This document shows positions 4,364-11,481 of a stretch of 11,481 nucleotides of DNA, in pieces. The stretch comes from Candidatus Hodarchaeota archaeon (lineage in GTDB: Archaea; Asgardarchaeota; Heimdallarchaeia; Hodarchaeales; Hodarchaeaceae). The DNA is taken from the NCBI GenBank assembly GCA_016840035.1, contig JAEOTC010000274.1, positions 1 through 11,481 on the forward strand, in the 5' to 3' direction. The first letter of the stretch is position 1. Each line of letters begins with the position of its first letter. A program made the position numbers and the translations under genes. A model generated the notes under the pieces. The model was not told the DNA's origin and did not search any database. It was given only the letters and a program-made list of their open reading frames with translations.

Positions 4364-5200
4364 TTATGTCCAAGGAGGAAGCTCTTTAAGGATTTTTGGT
4401 GAAATAAATCGCTCAAATACAGGAATTGACAATAAGCCTACCACGATACCTGTGGACAATGCAATCAAATATGCAGCCATATTGTCAGAGGAGAGGGGAA
4501 GAATCCCTAATGTGGAGTTCCAAAATAAATGCCAGATCAAGGAAGGAAGTAAAGAACTAGTCTTATAATAATAGTACCCCCATGGAATTGCTACCAAGAA
4601 AGAAAATAAGCATAATACAAAAGTGTACAGAATTACCTCTGGTAAGGTCATTTCACCTATTACGTACTCCTTTAACGGAGTTGGAAAATGCCAAATTCCG
4701 AAGAAAAAGGCCTGAAGCAGATTTGCCTTCCAAAAATGTTTTTTCGTGACATCCAAAGATAAACGAAGGTATATTCCGCGAAATAGACTCTCTTCCATCA
4801 TCACATTTACAATATTAGTAACAAATGTAAAGTAAAGAAATGAGAGCGTTACTTCAGAAAGATCCCATGCTCCGAAATCCCCAGCAACAAAAGTGTGAAC
4901 GACACGCATAGTGACTATTGAAAGTAGAACAAACCCTAAGCTGAATAAGCAGTTATAAACGAAGTATTCCTTTTTAATACCGATATCCTTCAGCGTTTTC
5001 CCCATAAATATAAGTAGAAATATAATTAAAACAAAAGAAAATGATTTAGAAAGGAGAATATCTCCCCAATCCTCGTCTAAGGTTAACCAGAAGATATCAA
5101 GCATTTTAAAGAAAATGAAAAATACAAACAATCCTATCATTAGAATAAGTGATCGATTTTGATCGTAAAACGATCCCTGTTTTTGTGTTACTTCAGTCAT
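4364..5200 (-). CDS. CPBP-family intramembrane glutamic endopeptidase (Rce1/Abi, type II CAAX protease-like)
   Basis: All three motifs are present in a multi-TM protein: EESLFRG (EExxxR), FGIWH (FxxxH), HLFWN (HxxxN). Start placed at ATG 5200 (MTEVTQ), preceded by GGGGA; the ORF track start at 5251 is an alternative. Confidence 0.92.
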   Translation of the reverse strand: MTEVTQKQGSFYDQNRSLILMIGLFVFFIFFKMLDIFWLTLDEDWGDILLSKSFSFVLIIFLLIFMGKTLKDIGIKKEYFVYNCLFSLGFVLLSIVTMRVVHTFVAGDFGAWDLSEVTLSFLYFTFVTNIVNVMMEESLFRGIYLRLSLDVTKKHFWKANLLQAFFFGIWHFPTPLKEYVIGEMTLPEVILYTFVLCLFSFLVAIPWGYYYYKTSSLLPSLIWHLFWNSTLGILPLSSDNMAAYLIALSTGIVVGLLSIPVFERFISPKILKELPPWT

Positions 5201-5323
5201 TTGAATCCCCATAAAATATTGAAATCGAGAGTTGTAACAAGATTTCATCACTTAATAAGTTAGCTAGTGAGTGATAGAGTTCTCCCCACGACATGATTAT
5301 GAAAAAACTGGAGAATATGCCCT

Positions 5324-6085
5324 TTATCCTTCCTCAAAATCAGATTTTATCTCTGAAATCCGCCAGTGGGTTAATTCTAAATCTGTTTCTGCAACAAACA
5401 CAATTACAGAATAAGGAAAGACATTGAACATCAAACAATGAAAATCTCTTGAAAGAGCTATCTGAAAACTCTCAATGGGAAAAGCGGTACGATTAGACAA
5501 ATCTAGAATAGTCTTAAGAGCTTTTGAGACATCTTCACTATACACACTGAATTTTTCGTCAATAAGATGAGTATATATTTGACTCATTTCAGGCCGGGTG
5601 AAAATAAGCATGTTTTCAAACGTTTTATCACCATAGCTATGAATAGAATCTAATAATTTACTCAAGTTGGTAACATCGATGTGTGAAAAGGATTTGTAGG
5701 CTTGAGCACATTCTACCGCAAAATCATAGTGCTCTTGATGAATTAAGGAGCTACCAGTAGCGGTCTTTTCTAAATCATCTTTGAATTTTTCTTCGAATTG
5801 AGAGATCAATTTGACAATAAAGTTCTCAAAAGTCGGGCCTGATTGAAATGTAAAGAGAGTTCCATAGACATAATCACCCTCAACAAGAATCGCATTATAA
5901 TGCCCGTAATTCACCATTCTCGTTTCCCCCTGTCCTTCACCTTTGCCAAAAGTCTCTCCCATAACTTGCATTATTGCAGTGATTAATCCACCCCGTATTT
6001 CACTATTGAAAAGAGTATCAGGCCGAAATTCAAGAGTGAATAGGGGAATCCCACTTACTTTACTTGTAATTTCAATGCCTATCAT
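5324..6085 (-). CDS. Longin-like domain fused to a C-terminal roadblock/LC7-like domain
   Basis: The N-half (IGIEITSKVSGIPLFTLEF...IRGGLITAIMQVMGETFG...MVNYGHYNAILVEGDYVYGTLF...FIVKLISQFEEKF) has the b-b-a-b-b-b-a longin pattern with the SG.PLF, GG.lTAI and FEe.F hallmarks. The C-half (LSKLLDSI...NMLIFTR...VSKALKTILDLSNR...IESFQIAL..FHCLMF...SVIVFV...DLELTHWRISEI) fits the a-b-b-a-b-b-b-a roadblock pattern. ATG 6085 is preferred over TTG 6115. Confidence 0.7.
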   Translation of the reverse strand: MIGIEITSKVSGIPLFTLEFRPDTLFNSEIRGGLITAIMQVMGETFGKGEGQGETRMVNYGHYNAILVEGDYVYGTLFTFQSGPTFENFIVKLISQFEEKFKDDLEKTATGSSLIHQEHYDFAVECAQAYKSFSHIDVTNLSKLLDSIHSYGDKTFENMLIFTRPEMSQIYTHLIDEKFSVYSEDVSKALKTILDLSNRTAFPIESFQIALSRDFHCLMFNVFPYSVIVFVAETDLELTHWRISEIKSDFEEG

Positions 6086-6226
6086 GGAAAGGTCACTAGA
6101 AAAAATAAATCCCAAGAAGAATAATTATTTGAATTCAATCTTATTAATTAAGGATATCGAAATTTAGCCTTTTCGTTTAATTTTGCTTAATCTGAGAAAT
6201 CCGAGATAAAACAGGTTTCCCAAGAT

Positions 6227-6269
6227 CAGAAGGTTTATTAGCAAAAGGAAACTCTTTCAATAGGAGTGA
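6227..6269 (+). promoter_or_regulatory. Putative archaeal promoter (BRE plus TATA) and ribosome-binding site for the 6279-10023 unit
   Basis: Purine-rich CAGAAGG followed by TTTATTA (6234-6240), then AGGAGTGA (6262-6269) 9 nt before ATG 6279. Confidence 0.5.
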
Positions 6270-6278
6270 AAATTAAAA

Positions 6279-6674
6279 ATGACCCAGAATCAGAATCAAT
6301 TAGTAAGTAGACGCTATGAAGTTATATCAATCATTAAAATCGTGAAATGGACTTTTATTCCATATTTGTGTATTCAATTCTTACACTTCTTAGGTGCACT
6401 AGGGAAGGATCCAACAAATCTCCTTCAGGCAACTATCACATTCATTGGGATGAGTGGATGGGGATATTTAGTTGTAGGAGGGCCATTCGTACTGATTGGT
6501 ATGGGAGTAAATTATATTGTTAGTCAATCGCTCCTGATGAATATTCCACAAGATACAACCTTGTACGAGGCTGTTACCCAATCCACTATAATGGTTGGTA
6601 ATCTAAAAGTGATCCTTCCTCGGATAGAGGATGATATTGAAATTTTAGATGAGAATGAATTAGAAGAATGGTAA
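6279..6674 (+). CDS. Hypothetical small membrane protein (about 2 TM) with an acidic C-terminal tail ending in Trp
   Basis: Good SD. Hydrophobic segments at aa ~15-41 and ~52-82. Tail EDDIEILDENELEEW. No family recognised. Confidence 0.7.
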   Translation: MTQNQNQLVSRRYEVISIIKIVKWTFIPYLCIQFLHFLGALGKDPTNLLQATITFIGMSGWGYLVVGGPFVLIGMGVNYIVSQSLLMNIPQDTTLYEAVTQSTIMVGNLKVILPRIEDDIEILDENELEEW

Positions 6675-6739
6675 GAAATAGGAGGAGAGGAATTCTTCTC
6701 TCTATTCGAAATGTAAATTTCTCGAGGATGAGGTAAAAA

Positions 6740-8482
6740 TTGTCACTGAAGAAGGGAGCTCTCTCAAAAATAAGAGAGAAAATACGAAAAAAACCAGATT
6801 ATGCCAAATTGATCGGTAAATATCATAAACAAATACAATCACACCCAGAGGATACTGAACCATATTTACTTCGAGCAGAAGTCTATATGACAATAAAAGA
6901 CTATCCTAGTGCCATTAAAGATTATACACAAGTATTAAAATTAAAACCCGACTTGGCAGAGGCTTATTGTAATCGGGGAGGGGCATATGGCAGACTAGGT
7001 GAATTTGAAAAAAGCCTCACCGACTATGCAGAGGCGATACGGTTAGATCCCCAAAATGCAGCTTATTTTCATTTTAGAGCGTATACACAGTATGTTGCAG
7101 GGGATTATCATCCTGCTCTCAGAGATTATTCACAGGCGCTCAGAATAAATCCATTATTAGCGATCAGTCATGCAGGTAGAGGAGACTGTTATTTTGCGAT
7201 GGAAAATTACCCGAAAGCAATCGAAGAATTTTCACAGGCATTAAAGCTGGCTGATCAATATTCCGAAACTAATGACGAAAGAGATCGAAAAGCTCAAGCA
7301 ATATTGATACAAAGAGGATTTGCATATTCACGTACAAAAGATACAGTGAGAGCGAATGACGATTTTTCTCGGGTAATCAAGATTAATCCAAAAAGAATAG
7401 ATGCATGGGGAAGTCGGGGGATGAATCATCTATATCGAGGAGAGTTTGACAAGGCAAAAGCTGATTTCAATAAGTGTATAGAATTAGATCCTACTGATTT
7501 TTTGGGATATTTCAATCGGGGAAATGCTCTGTTCTATAACCACCAATTTCGTGAAGCAATTCCAGATTTTACCAAGACCATAGAATTGAATCCAAATGAT
7601 CAACAGGCGATCCTTAATCGAGGGAACTGTTGGCGAGAATTGGGAGAGAATGAAAAAGCATTAGCAGACTATGCACTGGCGATATCGATCAACGAAGAAT
7701 ATGTCAATGCACATCTTAACCAAGGATCGGTGCTATTACGGATAGAAAAATATGATGAAGCCATCCAGAGTTTTAATAAAGTAATTGAATTGGACTCGGA
7801 GAATAAAGGTGCCTATTCTAACAGATCCATCGCTTACGAAGCTAAAGAAGAATATGAACAGGCATTAGCAGATGCAACAAAAGCTATCAGCTTGGATCCG
7901 AGCTATATGCAAGCTTATCATAATCGGGGAAGCATATACCTAAAGCAAGAAGAATATGCAAAAGCTTATTCCGAATTTTCTAAAGCAATTGAATTATCTG
8001 AAAATCCGGGTGCTTATCATTGGAGAGCGGAAGCCGCAGTCAAACAACAAAAATATGAAAATGCAATTCGGGATTGGACCCTTAGTGGCTTTCGGTATTT
8101 TCGTCATAGAATGTTTGAACAAGCCCAAAAGGCATTCAAACTCGCCTATGAGACAATGGATGAACAGGAGCTCATTACCGAAGAAGGGTTACTCGCAGCA
8201 TTGATGATTTTTACCTCAAGTCGTGATCCCGAAGTTGAAAGCATATTTGCCATATTACAACAGGAGGATTTGGATAAGCTTCACGACTTGATTTTAATTA
8301 AGTATTTAGAGCTAGTAAGAGAATATTTATGGGATCCTACCCAAGTATCAGAATCAGTTGAACGACTAGAAAATCTGAAAGATGAAATAAAAGCGTCTAA
8401 AAACCTTGAAACTAGAAAGAAAGCTTATTATCTGATACTCGGGATCGTGATGCGACAGAAGCTCTTGCAAAAGAGGAAATAA
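6740..8482 (+). CDS. Tetratricopeptide-repeat protein (~12 TPRs plus a C-terminal helical region), soluble
   Basis: 34-aa periodic motif AY.NRG..Y...g.ye.A..Df.kAi.l.P from aa ~39 to ~456 (4 repeats, an ~11-aa insertion, then 8 repeats). TTG start with GAGGT at 6730-6734. No signal peptide or TM seen. Confidence 0.95.
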   Translation: MSLKKGALSKIREKIRKKPDYAKLIGKYHKQIQSHPEDTEPYLLRAEVYMTIKDYPSAIKDYTQVLKLKPDLAEAYCNRGGAYGRLGEFEKSLTDYAEAIRLDPQNAAYFHFRAYTQYVAGDYHPALRDYSQALRINPLLAISHAGRGDCYFAMENYPKAIEEFSQALKLADQYSETNDERDRKAQAILIQRGFAYSRTKDTVRANDDFSRVIKINPKRIDAWGSRGMNHLYRGEFDKAKADFNKCIELDPTDFLGYFNRGNALFYNHQFREAIPDFTKTIELNPNDQQAILNRGNCWRELGENEKALADYALAISINEEYVNAHLNQGSVLLRIEKYDEAIQSFNKVIELDSENKGAYSNRSIAYEAKEEYEQALADATKAISLDPSYMQAYHNRGSIYLKQEEYAKAYSEFSKAIELSENPGAYHWRAEAAVKQQKYENAIRDWTLSGFRYFRHRMFEQAQKAFKLAYETMDEQELITEEGLLAALMIFTSSRDPEVESIFAILQQEDLDKLHDLILIKYLELVREYLWDPTQVSESVERLENLKDEIKASKNLETRKKAYYLILGIVMRQKLLQKRK

Positions 8483-8514
8483 TAAGAAAAAATCATCTTG
8501 GCAAAGGGAAAAAC

Positions 8515-10023
8515 ATGACATCTAATAGACCAGAGGAAGAAAAAACCACACAAATCGAATATGATAGTCCAAAAAGTTTTCTAGACAAAAATAATGCAAC
8601 AACACGGTTACTAGTAACCTTAGGTGTTATAGTAATCTACTTTATACTTACCATGATGCGGTTACCAGGAATTGACTTGGGTGAAGGAGATCCACTGTCA
8701 ACTATACGTATTATAGGTGCATCAAGTAATGGATCCCTCGTCGAATTAGGAATACTGCCGATTCTAATAGCTGGATTGACGATGTACATCTTACTGAAAT
8801 TTAATCTTTACGAACTCGATCCAGAAAAGCAAGTCGAACGAACTCGGTACAATAATGTGAGAATGATATTGAGTATCCTAATTACAATCATCCTAGCATT
8901 TGCTCTGACGATTTCAGGAATATATGGAACAGACCTGGATATAATTTCACAATTAGCGATAATCATTCAGCTTACTGTTGTTGGAATCCTGATAGTCTGC
9001 CTAGTGGAGCTCATAAATAGAGGTTGGGGATACGGATCAGGAATTTCACTTATTTTGGCAACTGGAATAGGACTACGCGTTATGAGGGCTTTTCTAGCAC
9101 CAAATAATATCTTAGAAGGGCCCGCAGAGGTTACTTCTGCACGAGGAATAATCTGGGCAGTTCTATATTGGACACTGGAACTAGGACCTGTTAAGGCATT
9201 CAACTATTTATTCTTCCGCTATAGCATCGATCCAACTCATAATTTAAATTTACCGTCATTATCACTATTTTCTGTCTATTTAGCAGGTATAGGTTTCCTT
9301 GTAATTGTAATAATGGAGCTTCTAATATCAAGAAAGCGTAACCAAGGACATACACATCCAAAATTAGAAAAGTTGACATCACCTGTCATACCCATTGTTT
9401 TAATAACAACGACATTGGCAATAGTCAGGTTCTTCAGCCTTTTCATCTGGAATATGAGTGGAAGAGACGGATCTTCATCAATATTAACATGGATATTGGG
9501 TGATTATAGATTAGAACTGACAACTGAACAGTATGTTCCAATCGGAGGATTAGCGTATTTTACGACTCCACTTTCAACATTCATGGCTGATCTGGCTCTT
9601 GATCCAATAGCAGCAATTTCACATGGAGTCATATATGCAGCAGTCTTTTTTGGACTGTACATGATGTTTAGTAGGATAAATTTCTGGATAGCCAATAAGA
9701 ATGGAGGTGTTTCAGGTATACAAAAACTGGGTACCCAGTGGCTTCTAATTGGGATAACCTGCGTGATACTGGATATGTTTAGTGTTCTTGGGGTTGGTTT
9801 GGGAATAATCATCTTCACATTGATAATTATGGACTATTATCACCTGTTTACCAGTGACCACTCCCCTGAGTTCATAAGATTCGATCTAGCCCAGTTAGAT
9901 AAGGAAAAAACTGACCGTTCACAGAATATAAGAATTTCTGGAGGCCTTTTCTGGGTAATCCTAGTTTTATTTGAGGTTACATTATTTATCGTCAGCGTGT
10001 TCTTCCAAATATTCTTTAATTAG
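8515..10023 (+). CDS. secY: Divergent SecY/Sec61alpha paralog with truncated cytosolic loops and an extra C-terminal TM helix
   Basis: Plug/TM2 DPLSTIRIIGASSNGSLVELGILPILIAG (Sec61alpha: [29 protein letters not shown]), TM4-5 IQL...LVELINRGWGYGSGISLILATG ([20 protein letters not shown]), TM7 IPIVL, GGLAYF..P...DPI before TM8, TM10 LGVGLGIII...IMDYY. Not flanked by ribosomal-protein genes or adk. Confidence 0.9.
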   Translation: MTSNRPEEEKTTQIEYDSPKSFLDKNNATTRLLVTLGVIVIYFILTMMRLPGIDLGEGDPLSTIRIIGASSNGSLVELGILPILIAGLTMYILLKFNLYELDPEKQVERTRYNNVRMILSILITIILAFALTISGIYGTDLDIISQLAIIIQLTVVGILIVCLVELINRGWGYGSGISLILATGIGLRVMRAFLAPNNILEGPAEVTSARGIIWAVLYWTLELGPVKAFNYLFFRYSIDPTHNLNLPSLSLFSVYLAGIGFLVIVIMELLISRKRNQGHTHPKLEKLTSPVIPIVLITTTLAIVRFFSLFIWNMSGRDGSSSILTWILGDYRLELTTEQYVPIGGLAYFTTPLSTFMADLALDPIAAISHGVIYAAVFFGLYMMFSRINFWIANKNGGVSGIQKLGTQWLLIGITCVILDMFSVLGVGLGIIIFTLIIMDYYHLFTSDHSPEFIRFDLAQLDKEKTDRSQNIRISGGLFWVILVLFEVTLFIVSVFFQIFFN

Positions 10024-11481
10024 TTTCCCTTCTGTAGAAATGTGTGAAGAGAAAAAATAAGAGAATTGTGAATGAGAAAGAAAGAGTAGGAGACTGCTGG
10101 GAAGTAGTGCTGCTATGAGTTGTAGTGGAAGAAAACGACGAATTTAGTGGTATAGTAGGTAAAGATGTCGTAAGAAATGAAGAATTCATCAAAAAAGTAG
10201 TAAAAGAATATGCGGGTATGTGTAGAGAGACATCGGTGGTAGGAAAAGGACTAATGAGACTTTCTATGCCGTTATAAACAGTCACAATATTATCAATACT
10301 TGGGATCTCACACGCATCTACACCAGACTGAACGAGGAGATTGGAAAAATTGCCACTCCACACAAGCGTAGAATCACCACGATTAGCAAATAAAATTGCG
10401 AGATCACCCCGAGGACCTCGATATCCCTGAATGACACCCTGGGGAACATTGAGACCAGGAAGAGAAATCATTGGACAATCAGTCCATAGGAAAGGAAACA
10501 ACAAATCCCCATCTCGGAAGAATTGATAATCATCTAATTTACGAGTTAAATAAGCAGAAATTAATGCTTCATAGGATTTGGTAGAAATCGACAAACGGGA
10601 AGGAGAAATTAGAGTTGCAGCACCAGGAAAATAGCCATCCTTAAGACTTTCTGACAAACCCCAGAAAAAAAGGGGAAAATTAACTGGATTAATATCAGGA
10701 CGTCCACTAGTCAACAGATAGGGATGATAAACAAAACTAAAGAGGGGGATACTCTTCCCTGTGGGAAACCAGTTATTACGTTCATAGCTAGTATGATAAC
10801 TCCAAAATAGATCAATAGTACTCAGATAAGTTTCAACAACATTTTCTGAAGCTAATCCCGCATCGGGATTGAAGGTATGCATGGCATCCCGAGTTCGAGT
10901 TAAAAGCTGGTTTTCTGCTATTTGCCACCAGCTACCTGAGCCAGGGGGGTGAGAGGGTACATCACGATAATCAAACATAGGTGGGGCCACACTAATCTGA
11001 TCTAAATATAGAAGATCAGCTTGAAAATCACGGACAGCCGTTACAGAATAATTAAGAACGATTTCCTGCCACCAATCAGAAGAAGGATCCGCTACAGCGC
11101 CTGTAAGATAGGGAGTATAGGTTTCAGTATAAATTGAATCTCGATACCCTGTAAGAAATTCCTGATTTTGCGTAAATGTATCAGTCGAGACATCCACCAA
11201 TCGTCCGTTAAAATACAACATAACTTTAGCAGAGGCAGAATGGGCATCATTAATCCCTTCAACTAGCTTAACATTGCCGTCACGGGCGGGATAATAATCA
11301 GGATATCCACGATCAAAACCATCACGCCCCCATCCCCACCACTCAAGTAAAAAGTCGGAAGATAATCCTTTCTGAGTGAGATGGGTTGGAAACATTCCCA
11401 TATTATCAACGGTTTCCCCTTCGAGGACAATATTTCCCGTATCATGGTCAGTGACATACGATGATCCTTTCCAGACGTAAT
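10016..11481 (-). CDS. Putative glycoside hydrolase (DUF6259-like TIM barrel) with S/T-rich linker and C-terminal membrane anchor; 5'-partial
   Basis: Motifs WWGW...YPDYYP, MLYFNGRL, DP...WQ, ADLLYLDQIS, HPPG.G.WW, SENVVETY and PLFSFVYH resemble DUF6259/GH36-like barrels. The end is SSTTTHSSTTSQQSPTLSFSFTILLFFLFTHFYRRETN. The frame stays open from 11401 to the window edge (YVWKGSSYVTDHDTGNIVLEGETVDN-MGMF), so the real start is outside. Overlaps the secY-like 3' end by 8 nt. Confidence 0.7.
   Translation of the reverse strand, partial: YVWKGSSYVTDHDTGNIVLEGETVDNMGMFPTHLTQKGLSSDFLLEWWGWGRDGFDRGYPDYYPARDGNVKLVEGINDAHSASAKVMLYFNGRLVDVSTDTFTQNQEFLTGYRDSIYTETYTPYLTGAVADPSSDWWQEIVLNYSVTAVRDFQADLLYLDQISVAPPMFDYRDVPSHPPGSGSWWQIAENQLLTRTRDAMHTFNPDAGLASENVVETYLSTIDLFWSYHTSYERNNWFPTGKSIPLFSFVYHPYLLTSGRPDINPVNFPLFFWGLSESLKDGYFPGAATLISPSRLSISTKSYEALISAYLTRKLDDYQFFRDGDLLFPFLWTDCPMISLPGLNVPQGVIQGYRGPRGDLAILFANRGDSTLVWSGNFSNLLVQSGVDACEIPSIDNIVTVYNGIESLISPFPTTDVSLHIPAYSFTTFLMNSSFLTTSLPTIPLNSSFSSTTTHSSTTSQQSPTLSFSFTILLFFLFTHFYRRETN

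Follow-up and report, generated by a model that had tools for sequence, protein, structure and literature searches.

A fast-evolving SecY/Sec61alpha subfamily with a rewritten cytosolic face in one genus of Heimdallarchaeia

Extra SecY/Sec61 channels are known from bacteria (SecY2), plastids and eukaryotes. In SecY and Sec61 generally, ribosomes dock at the cytosolic loops 6/7 and 8/9, as do SecA and the signal recognition particle (SRP) receptor; in bacteria, SecA and the SRP receptor reportedly use sites that overlap the ribosome docking site (for example Kuhn et al. 2011, listed in PMC8082313). In yeast, loop 6/7 is also where Sec63 binds to Sec61. How archaea, which have no SecA, carry out post-translational translocation is an old open question. 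Here we analyse a contig of 11,481 nucleotides (JAEOTC010000274.1) from a Hodarchaeales archaeon, called the window below, which is the whole stretch of DNA that was analysed. It carries a gene for a SecY/Sec61alpha paralog, preceded by genes for a small membrane protein and a tetratricopeptide repeat (TPR) protein, and the initial annotation had proposed that the three make up a second, post-translational Sec channel. The paralog belongs to a young, fast-evolving SecY/Sec61alpha subfamily, found in this Heimdallarchaeia genus only and called group C here. The gene and the parts of it that differ most from canonical SecY are as follows.

8515-10023, + strand: group C SecY/Sec61alpha paralog gene, an open reading frame (ORF) of 502 aa
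9346-9384, + strand (about residues 278-290): cytosolic loop 6/7, shortened and without its motif, from alignments
9688-9741, + strand (about residues 392-409): remnant of cytosolic loop 8/9, from alignments
9865-10020, + strand: C-terminal extension absent from canonical SecY, made up of an EF.RFDL linker and an eleventh transmembrane helix (TM11)

The protein matches Pfam SecY (PF00344) with 69.8 bits against a cut-off of 32.2, the match covering profile positions 1-222 of 306. It scores below the cut-offs of both NCBIfam housekeeping equivalogs (106.3 against 300 bits for NF006341, and 90.8 against 253.6 for TIGR00967) and below that of Plug_translocon (20.0 against 22.1 bits), the plug-like segment itself aligning well with that of the canonical copy. 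AlphaFold2 predicts a SecY fold of ten transmembrane (TM) helices, with a pLDDT of 78 and a pTM of 0.81. In a Foldseek search with this model, Sec61alpha and SecY chains matched with TM-scores of 0.6-0.72 overall; the best matches were Sec61alpha chains (0.67-0.72), as they were by sequence, with a best E-value of 1.4e-17 and top matches from 1e-17 to 1e-13.

What the paralog shares with housekeeping SecY/Sec61alpha is the membrane part: the 10-TM clamshell, a plug-like segment, the GSGIS motif of TM5, E165, and hydrophobic residues at four pore-ring positions, these last being mapped by hand on the HMMER alignment. By our own count on that alignment, the paralog residue opposite human N300 is I303; the canonical Heimdall copy has a D at this place. 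The polar gate positions of canonical SecY, E in TM3 and D in TM7, are hydrophobic in the aligned members of group C.

All of the cytosolic elements, by contrast, have been rewritten: the N-terminus, loop 6/7, loop 8/9 and the C-terminus. The N-terminal PEV..P segment of canonical SecY is replaced throughout group C. Loop 6/7 is shorter by 6-8 residues in the group and has lost the R..IP...G..YPIK motif; in the window paralog this hairpin is replaced with a deletion of 6 residues, and pLDDT is low at 278-287. Loop 8/9 has a deletion of 28-29 residues which removes the PGWRR segment from every member. At the C-terminus there is an extension of about 45 residues, consisting of the conserved EF.RFDL linker and the strongly hydrophobic TM11, which in the window paralog is residues 476-501 of the AlphaFold2 model (nucleotides 9940-10017; hydropathy 2.66). 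The alignments bear out the suggestion that this is a remodelled SecY; the copy has lost the ribosome-docking loops. We considered whether the added helix might represent a fusion to SecE or Sec61beta, and rejected this, as five group C tails gave no match to PF00584 or PF03911 at E<=10. Separate SecE-like and Sec61beta genes are present in the genome, one found of each.

Among 61 related genomes, a search detected SecY in 55; within the genus, many genomes carry two copies. A tree was made from 43 sequences by a quick IQ-TREE run with SH-aLRT support values, and in it the divergent copies, including that of the window, form one clade (SH-aLRT 99) nested among the canonical SecYs of the genus. 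The end branches are 1.15-4.0 long in this clade and about 0.03 in the canonical copies. Alignments give a grouping that does not depend on the tree: group A is the canonical SecY, and group B is a second copy with intact loops and C-terminus, which occurs in seven genomes (G003, G008, G010, G012, G013, G015 and G018; loci L076, L069, L068, L067, L059, L022 and L019, respectively). Group C consists of the window gene, its ortholog P0004, P0005, the C80 copy of G014, the C62 copy of G002, and the C247 and C289 copies of G000, which is the genome that holds the window. Of the 8 members of the divergent clade, 7 carry the group C insertions and deletions, the exception being G017_C8; no member of groups A and B has them. 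In no searched genome were groups B and C found together. The best matches in G014 and G002 were tried as orthologs of the window gene and were found, from their winged helix-turn-helix (wHTH) neighbour and from the tree, to be orthologs of the C247 type. In the tree, group B copies often branch with group A copies from the same genome, which suggests gene conversion.

Two genomes, G017 (C8, L073:614-8004) and G001 (C6, L072), have a very divergent SecY-like gene which has no TM11 and which keeps the length of loop 8/9, though not its sequence. It lies upstream of genes for a wHTH protein and an STT3/AglB oligosaccharyltransferase, and diverges from an ABC ATPase gene and an ORF of 487 aa with no Pfam match. 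The G001 copy carries an in-frame TAG.

The subfamily is rare. Among 1.84 billion representative proteins, about five clusters at 50% identity match through the C-terminal part, and those with a source name all come from metagenome-assembled genomes (MAGs) of Hodarchaeales or Kariarchaeaceae. The named relatives in the database are Hodarchaeales, Kariarchaeaceae and Heimdallarchaeota B3_Heim. Full-text literature searches turned up no description of SecY/Sec61 paralogs from Asgard or Heimdall archaea, and no SecY with both docking loops lost and an eleventh helix gained; the window gene is an accessory SecY paralog that is probably new to the literature.

The rate at which group C evolves might suggest that its members no longer conduct proteins, and have become, as relaxed or neofunctionalised paralogs, membrane scaffolds, wHTH-linked sensors, decoys that titrate SecE and Sec61beta, or simply decaying genes. 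The nonsynonymous rate (dN) is about 10 times that of the canonical copies. The ratio of nonsynonymous to synonymous rates (dN/dS) is about 0.25 between the window gene and P0004, where dS is saturated, and 0.40 between G014 C80 and G002 C62; canonical pairs give 0.025 (G000 C71 and G004 C32) and 0.17 (G014 C31 and G002 C88). Copy number and context vary, the C289 copy has no Pfam SecY match at all, the related G001 copy has its in-frame stop, the polar gate positions have become hydrophobic, and the conserved partner gene encodes a transcription-factor-like wHTH protein. Yet ORFs of about 500 aa remain intact across orthologs that are 45-57% divergent, with dN/dS well below 1, and the genes are maintained by purifying selection, under a constraint that is much weaker or shifting. 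The TM core is conserved and the fold is confidently SecY-like. Furthermore, the EF.RFDL linker and TM11 were newly gained and are conserved, and this speaks against decay and for a function that has changed but is still maintained. We therefore regard loss of the channel function as unlikely, though it is an alternative to be taken seriously.

We favour the reading, to which we give a probability of roughly 0.6, that the members of group C are channels, or insertase-like pores, uncoupled from the ribosome and serving restricted clients; their partners would probably still be the cell's single copies of SecE and Sec61beta. Since the pore is kept and loops 6/7 and 8/9 are gone, they most likely lack canonical ribosome docking; channel activity would be retained. 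Such proteins could act post-translationally or on a narrow set of clients. The cytosolic EF.RFDL motif and TM11 would provide a different interface. If the paralog instead still worked co-translationally, as an Ssh1-like alternative translocon, the ribosome would have to dock through the new C-terminal linker or through partner subunits. The conserved cytosolic motif at the C-terminus would fit such a role, and the parental copies of group B keep their loops and look like ordinary alternative SecYs. However, the seven members that carry the group C indels have had both docking loops either deleted or rewritten, and we know of no characterised SecY/Sec61 that docks the ribosome without them. 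This is the least probable of the readings weighed here.

Like the SecY2 of Firmicutes, which works with SecA2 in the accessory Sec (aSec) system, the paralog is a divergent second SecY outside the ribosomal cluster, with presumed special clients. Unlike aSec, there is no SecA found, and the window has no Asp, glycosyltransferase or serine-rich substrate genes; and unlike SecY2, group C arose independently, within one archaeal genus, as the tree indicates. To our knowledge, SecY2 has neither lost both of these cytosolic loops nor gained an eleventh helix. Yeast Ssh1, mammalian Sec61alpha2 and plastid SCY2 are likewise lineage-specific channel duplicates, and the group B copies look like conservative duplicates of this sort. 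Ssh1 keeps its docking to the ribosome, on which its structure was solved (PDB 2ww9, one of the structure and sequence matches); in group C, unlike Ssh1, the docking loops are lost. With regard to housekeeping SecY, the differences are the loop deletions, the loss of PEV..P, TM11, and evolution about 10 times faster. A natural SecY whose cytosolic face has been rewritten, and which selection maintains, gives a concrete object on which to test ribosome binding, the partners of EF.RFDL and the clients. The significance for eukaryogenesis is limited: group C is a young clade, nested within a single genus, and so is not the ancestor of any eukaryotic Sec61 paralog.

The window (contig C277 in our labelling) belongs to a MAG of 4.3 Mb with a completeness of 87%. 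This genome has four SecY-like genes, one canonical (contig C71) and three of group C (C277, C247 and C289). The canonical gene matches Pfam SecY with 216 bits over the whole profile and has the plug domain. The C247 copy is 47% identical to the window paralog; the C289 copy (L036:7501-8988), without a Pfam SecY match, is 29% identical. A Band7/SPFH gene precedes the latter, and an ORF of 112 aa and a TldD/PmbA pair follow it. Housekeeping archaeal secY is usually the last gene of the spc ribosomal-protein cluster, and the initial annotation had taken the lack of such neighbours as a sign that the window gene is an accessory copy. A Pfam scan of the window did find no ribosomal-protein or adk gene near it. 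A canonical copy, for which the initial annotation had advised a search, is indeed present elsewhere in the genome, so that the window gene is not the only secY; but it too (L004:7742-9250) stands outside any ribosomal-protein cluster, with an MFS-like gene on one side and a divergent ORF on the other, and the absence of ribosomal neighbours is thus uninformative. The divergent ORF (L004:9782-11791), head-to-head with the canonical secY, has more than 670 codons and no Pfam match. As had been supposed for an archaeon, no SecA was found (no match to SecA_DEAD in the 87%-complete genome), nor was there a match to Sec62 in the same genome.

We now turn to the suggestion that the paralog works with the products of the two genes upstream of it. 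The other features of the locus are as follows.

6279-6674, + strand: small membrane-protein gene (product P0001), an ORF of 131 aa
6675-6739, + strand: gap between the small-protein and TPR genes, 65 nt, without an oligo-T run
6740-8482, + strand: TPR gene (product P0002), an ORF of 580 aa with a TTG start
8483-8514, + strand: gap between the TPR gene and the SecY paralog gene, 32 nt, without an oligo-T run
5324-6115, - strand: divergent upstream gene, with a 263-aa product and no Pfam match
6116-6278, no strand: intergenic region between the divergent gene and the small-protein gene, 163 nt, AT-rich on direct reading
10016-11479, - strand: convergent DUF6259 gene, cut by the contig end (Pfam DUF6259, E=1.7e-43)

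The layout is as originally described: three co-oriented genes with gaps of 65 and 32 nt, between a divergent and a convergent gene. Neither gap contains a run of five Ts or a terminator-like hairpin on the + strand, which is compatible with co-transcription. The eukaryotic complex of Sec61 with Sec62, Sec63, Sec71 and Sec72 offers a ready parallel, being a channel that works without the ribosome and is served by Sec72, a TPR receptor in the cytosol, and by small partners in the membrane. Accordingly, the three genes might encode a dedicated ribosome-independent translocon, with a TPR protein as cytosolic receptor for clients or chaperones, a small tether and a SecY pore, analogous to Sec61-Sec62/63/72. 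For this there is the co-orientation with short gaps and no oligo-T runs, the deletion of the docking loops, and the lack of any SecA found in the genome. The pair of small-protein and TPR genes is moreover kept in four genomes, as listed here.

Window: small-protein and TPR genes adjacent (65 nt); SecY paralog directly after the TPR gene (32 nt)
L077: small-protein and TPR genes adjacent (188 nt), with 67% / 54% identity; SecY paralog 5.5 kb downstream
G004: one opposite-strand gene between small-protein and TPR genes; no SecY paralog nearby
L091: one opposite-strand gene between small-protein and TPR genes; no SecY paralog nearby

L077 thus has an ortholog of the paralog on the same contig as the pair. 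This is P0004, 56% identical and the sole identifiable ortholog; but five genes on both strands separate it from the TPR gene, and it stands beside a DUF6259 gene. The TPR gene is followed in G004 by a gene for 147 aa and DUF6259, and in L091 by RDD and CNNM genes. G016 and G013 each have a further ortholog of the TPR gene, with none of the small-protein, DUF6259 or SecY paralog genes as neighbours. The three-gene adjacency was found in this window only among the 61 genomes and the metagenome contigs examined, so that recurrence in other genomes did not appear. This largely agrees with the outcome that the initial annotation had named as refuting its model, orthologs of the paralog that do not occur in an operon with the other two genes, apart from the residual neighbourhood linkage in the one sister genome. 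Every other group C locus examined has other neighbours (wHTH, ABC transporter, leucine-rich repeat or Band7 genes), which speaks against a dedicated three-part machine. The small-protein family is present in 16 of the 21 other genomes of the genus, some of which have no detected group C gene, and it is unlinked to secY in these except in G013.

Nor do the two proteins resemble the eukaryotic subunits. P0001 has no Pfam family and P0002 only generic TPR families; neither matches Sec62, Sec63 or Sec72 in Pfam, Sec63 not having been searched for separately in the genome. Furthermore, loop 6/7, which is the Sec63 site in yeast Sec61, is degraded in the paralog, and the linkage of the genes is not conserved. 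The likeness to Sec62 and Sec72 is thus one of analogy without homology, as the initial annotation itself had stated. A complex prediction for the SecY paralog with the small protein gave a score of 0.00; it was made without controls, gives no verdict and counts neither way.

Since the flanking genes differ among the loci, the small-protein and TPR genes, with DUF6259 in 3 of the 4 loci, look like a conserved pair or neighbourhood. The two would then be a separate conserved pair and not dedicated subunits of the SecY paralog, whose position behind them appears to be a recent, species-specific juxtaposition, probably giving co-transcription in this organism. The translocon of three proteins is weakly supported, and we consider it quite unlikely. 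A variant in which group C proteins are ribosome-independent channels, one of which was recruited here to join the genes of a cytosolic TPR receptor and a small membrane tether in one operon, is more doubtful still. If it were true, the operon would show a counterpart of the eukaryotic Sec62/63/72 post-translational translocon at a nascent stage, reached by convergence, and would give a handle on post-translational translocation in archaea without SecA, in a close relative of eukaryotes. Of the original proposal of a second, post-translational channel, there remains an extra SecY without docking loops, for which uncoupling from the ribosome is plausible; the TPR and small proteins as its dedicated subunits are not supported.

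Several points weigh against our preferred reading, of a ribosome-uncoupled channel that is independent of the small-protein and TPR pair. The loss of ribosome docking is deduced purely from sequence. The tree comes from a quick run and could be distorted by its long branches, and the completeness of the genome is 87%. The spacing of 65 and 32 nt without oligo-T runs suggests that co-transcription is real, and selection for co-expression would be possible. In L077 the small-protein, TPR, DUF6259 and SecY paralog genes all lie within 9.4 kb despite different flanks, so that some linkage is retained. Finally, a homolog of the small protein is encoded two genes from the group B secY of G013 (G013_C435), after the wHTH gene, a second and independent case of proximity, which would also suit a dedicated translocon.

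The small protein itself has no Pfam or NCBIfam family, and a search of a protein-cluster database returned merely sub-threshold clusters of hypothetical proteins. It is predicted to be a hairpin of two TM helices, followed by a small domain at the C-terminus and an acidic tail; the AlphaFold2 model, of modest confidence (pLDDT 69), has helices at 18-43 and 45-83. The family is restricted to the genus. Its alignment shows a conserved C-terminal region with an IP..TTLYEA.. motif, and the acidic tail is family-wide, being present also in genomes without a detected TPR ortholog. The TPR protein is a soluble solenoid of about 10 repeats (Pfam TPR_1, E=9.5e-77) without a TM helix, ending in a helical C-terminal domain of about 140 aa. 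Its orthologs in related genomes are 47-60% identical. That of G013 (C126, L085:5488-7242) is split into adjacent ORFs of 188 and 395 aa, which may reflect a frameshift, a stop codon or an assembly error.

The gene that does recur beside the accessory copies encodes a wHTH protein of the Pfam HTH_HVO_0163_N type, with an N-terminal TM helix in 4 of the 6 gene models checked. It adjoins seven copies of group B, six loci of group C (C247 in the window's genome, G014, G002, the contig of P0005, L088 and L090) and the two odd divergent copies of G017 and G001. In group B the secY and wHTH genes are usually divergent, 150-300 nt apart. Genes for an ABC ATPase and permease recur near several of the wHTH-linked secY loci. 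On metagenome contig L088 (2352-5746), two tandem group C genes that share only 45% identity come after the wHTH gene, the second being cut by the contig end. Group C derives from the second copy represented by group B. The simplest history would be that a duplication at the level of the genus gave rise to a wHTH-associated second secY of the group B type, which was then remodelled and accelerated in one sub-lineage, as group C, and duplicated further; the window copy would be a group C copy that has lost its wHTH neighbour. The wHTH protein is probably the ancestral regulator of the group C copies, and the pairing, seen across the genus, of a second secY with a membrane-anchored wHTH regulator presents a new, testable regulatory module.

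Some details of the window may be added. The intergenic region 6116-6278 contains an SD-like GGAGTG before the ATG of the small-protein gene. A scan for sigma-70 promoters gave the same counts as shuffled sequence, the sigma-70 consensus being not applicable to archaea. The spacers between the small-protein and TPR genes in the window (6675-6739) and in L077 (2579-2765) have a TATTCGAAA element in common; in L077 it is part of the TATA-like TTTTATATTCGAAAA, so that on this contig the TPR gene may be transcribed from a separate promoter. The 263-aa product of the divergent gene has an ortholog in G014 that is 79.5% identical and is encoded two genes from the small-protein ortholog. Further upstream are genes for an Arf-family small GTPase (1571-2143) and a CAAX/Rce1-like protease (4364-5251).

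At the other end, the 3' end of the DUF6259 gene overlaps the SecY paralog gene by 8 nt. A search of a literature library turned up no paper on the DUF6259 family. Orthologs with 77-79% identity adjoin the TPR gene or the SecY paralog in G004 and L077. The final 41 codons of the DUF6259 frame (window 11357-11479) are identical to positions 8733-8855 of contig C53 of the same genome, and the two contigs, C277 and C53, therefore probably join at this place.

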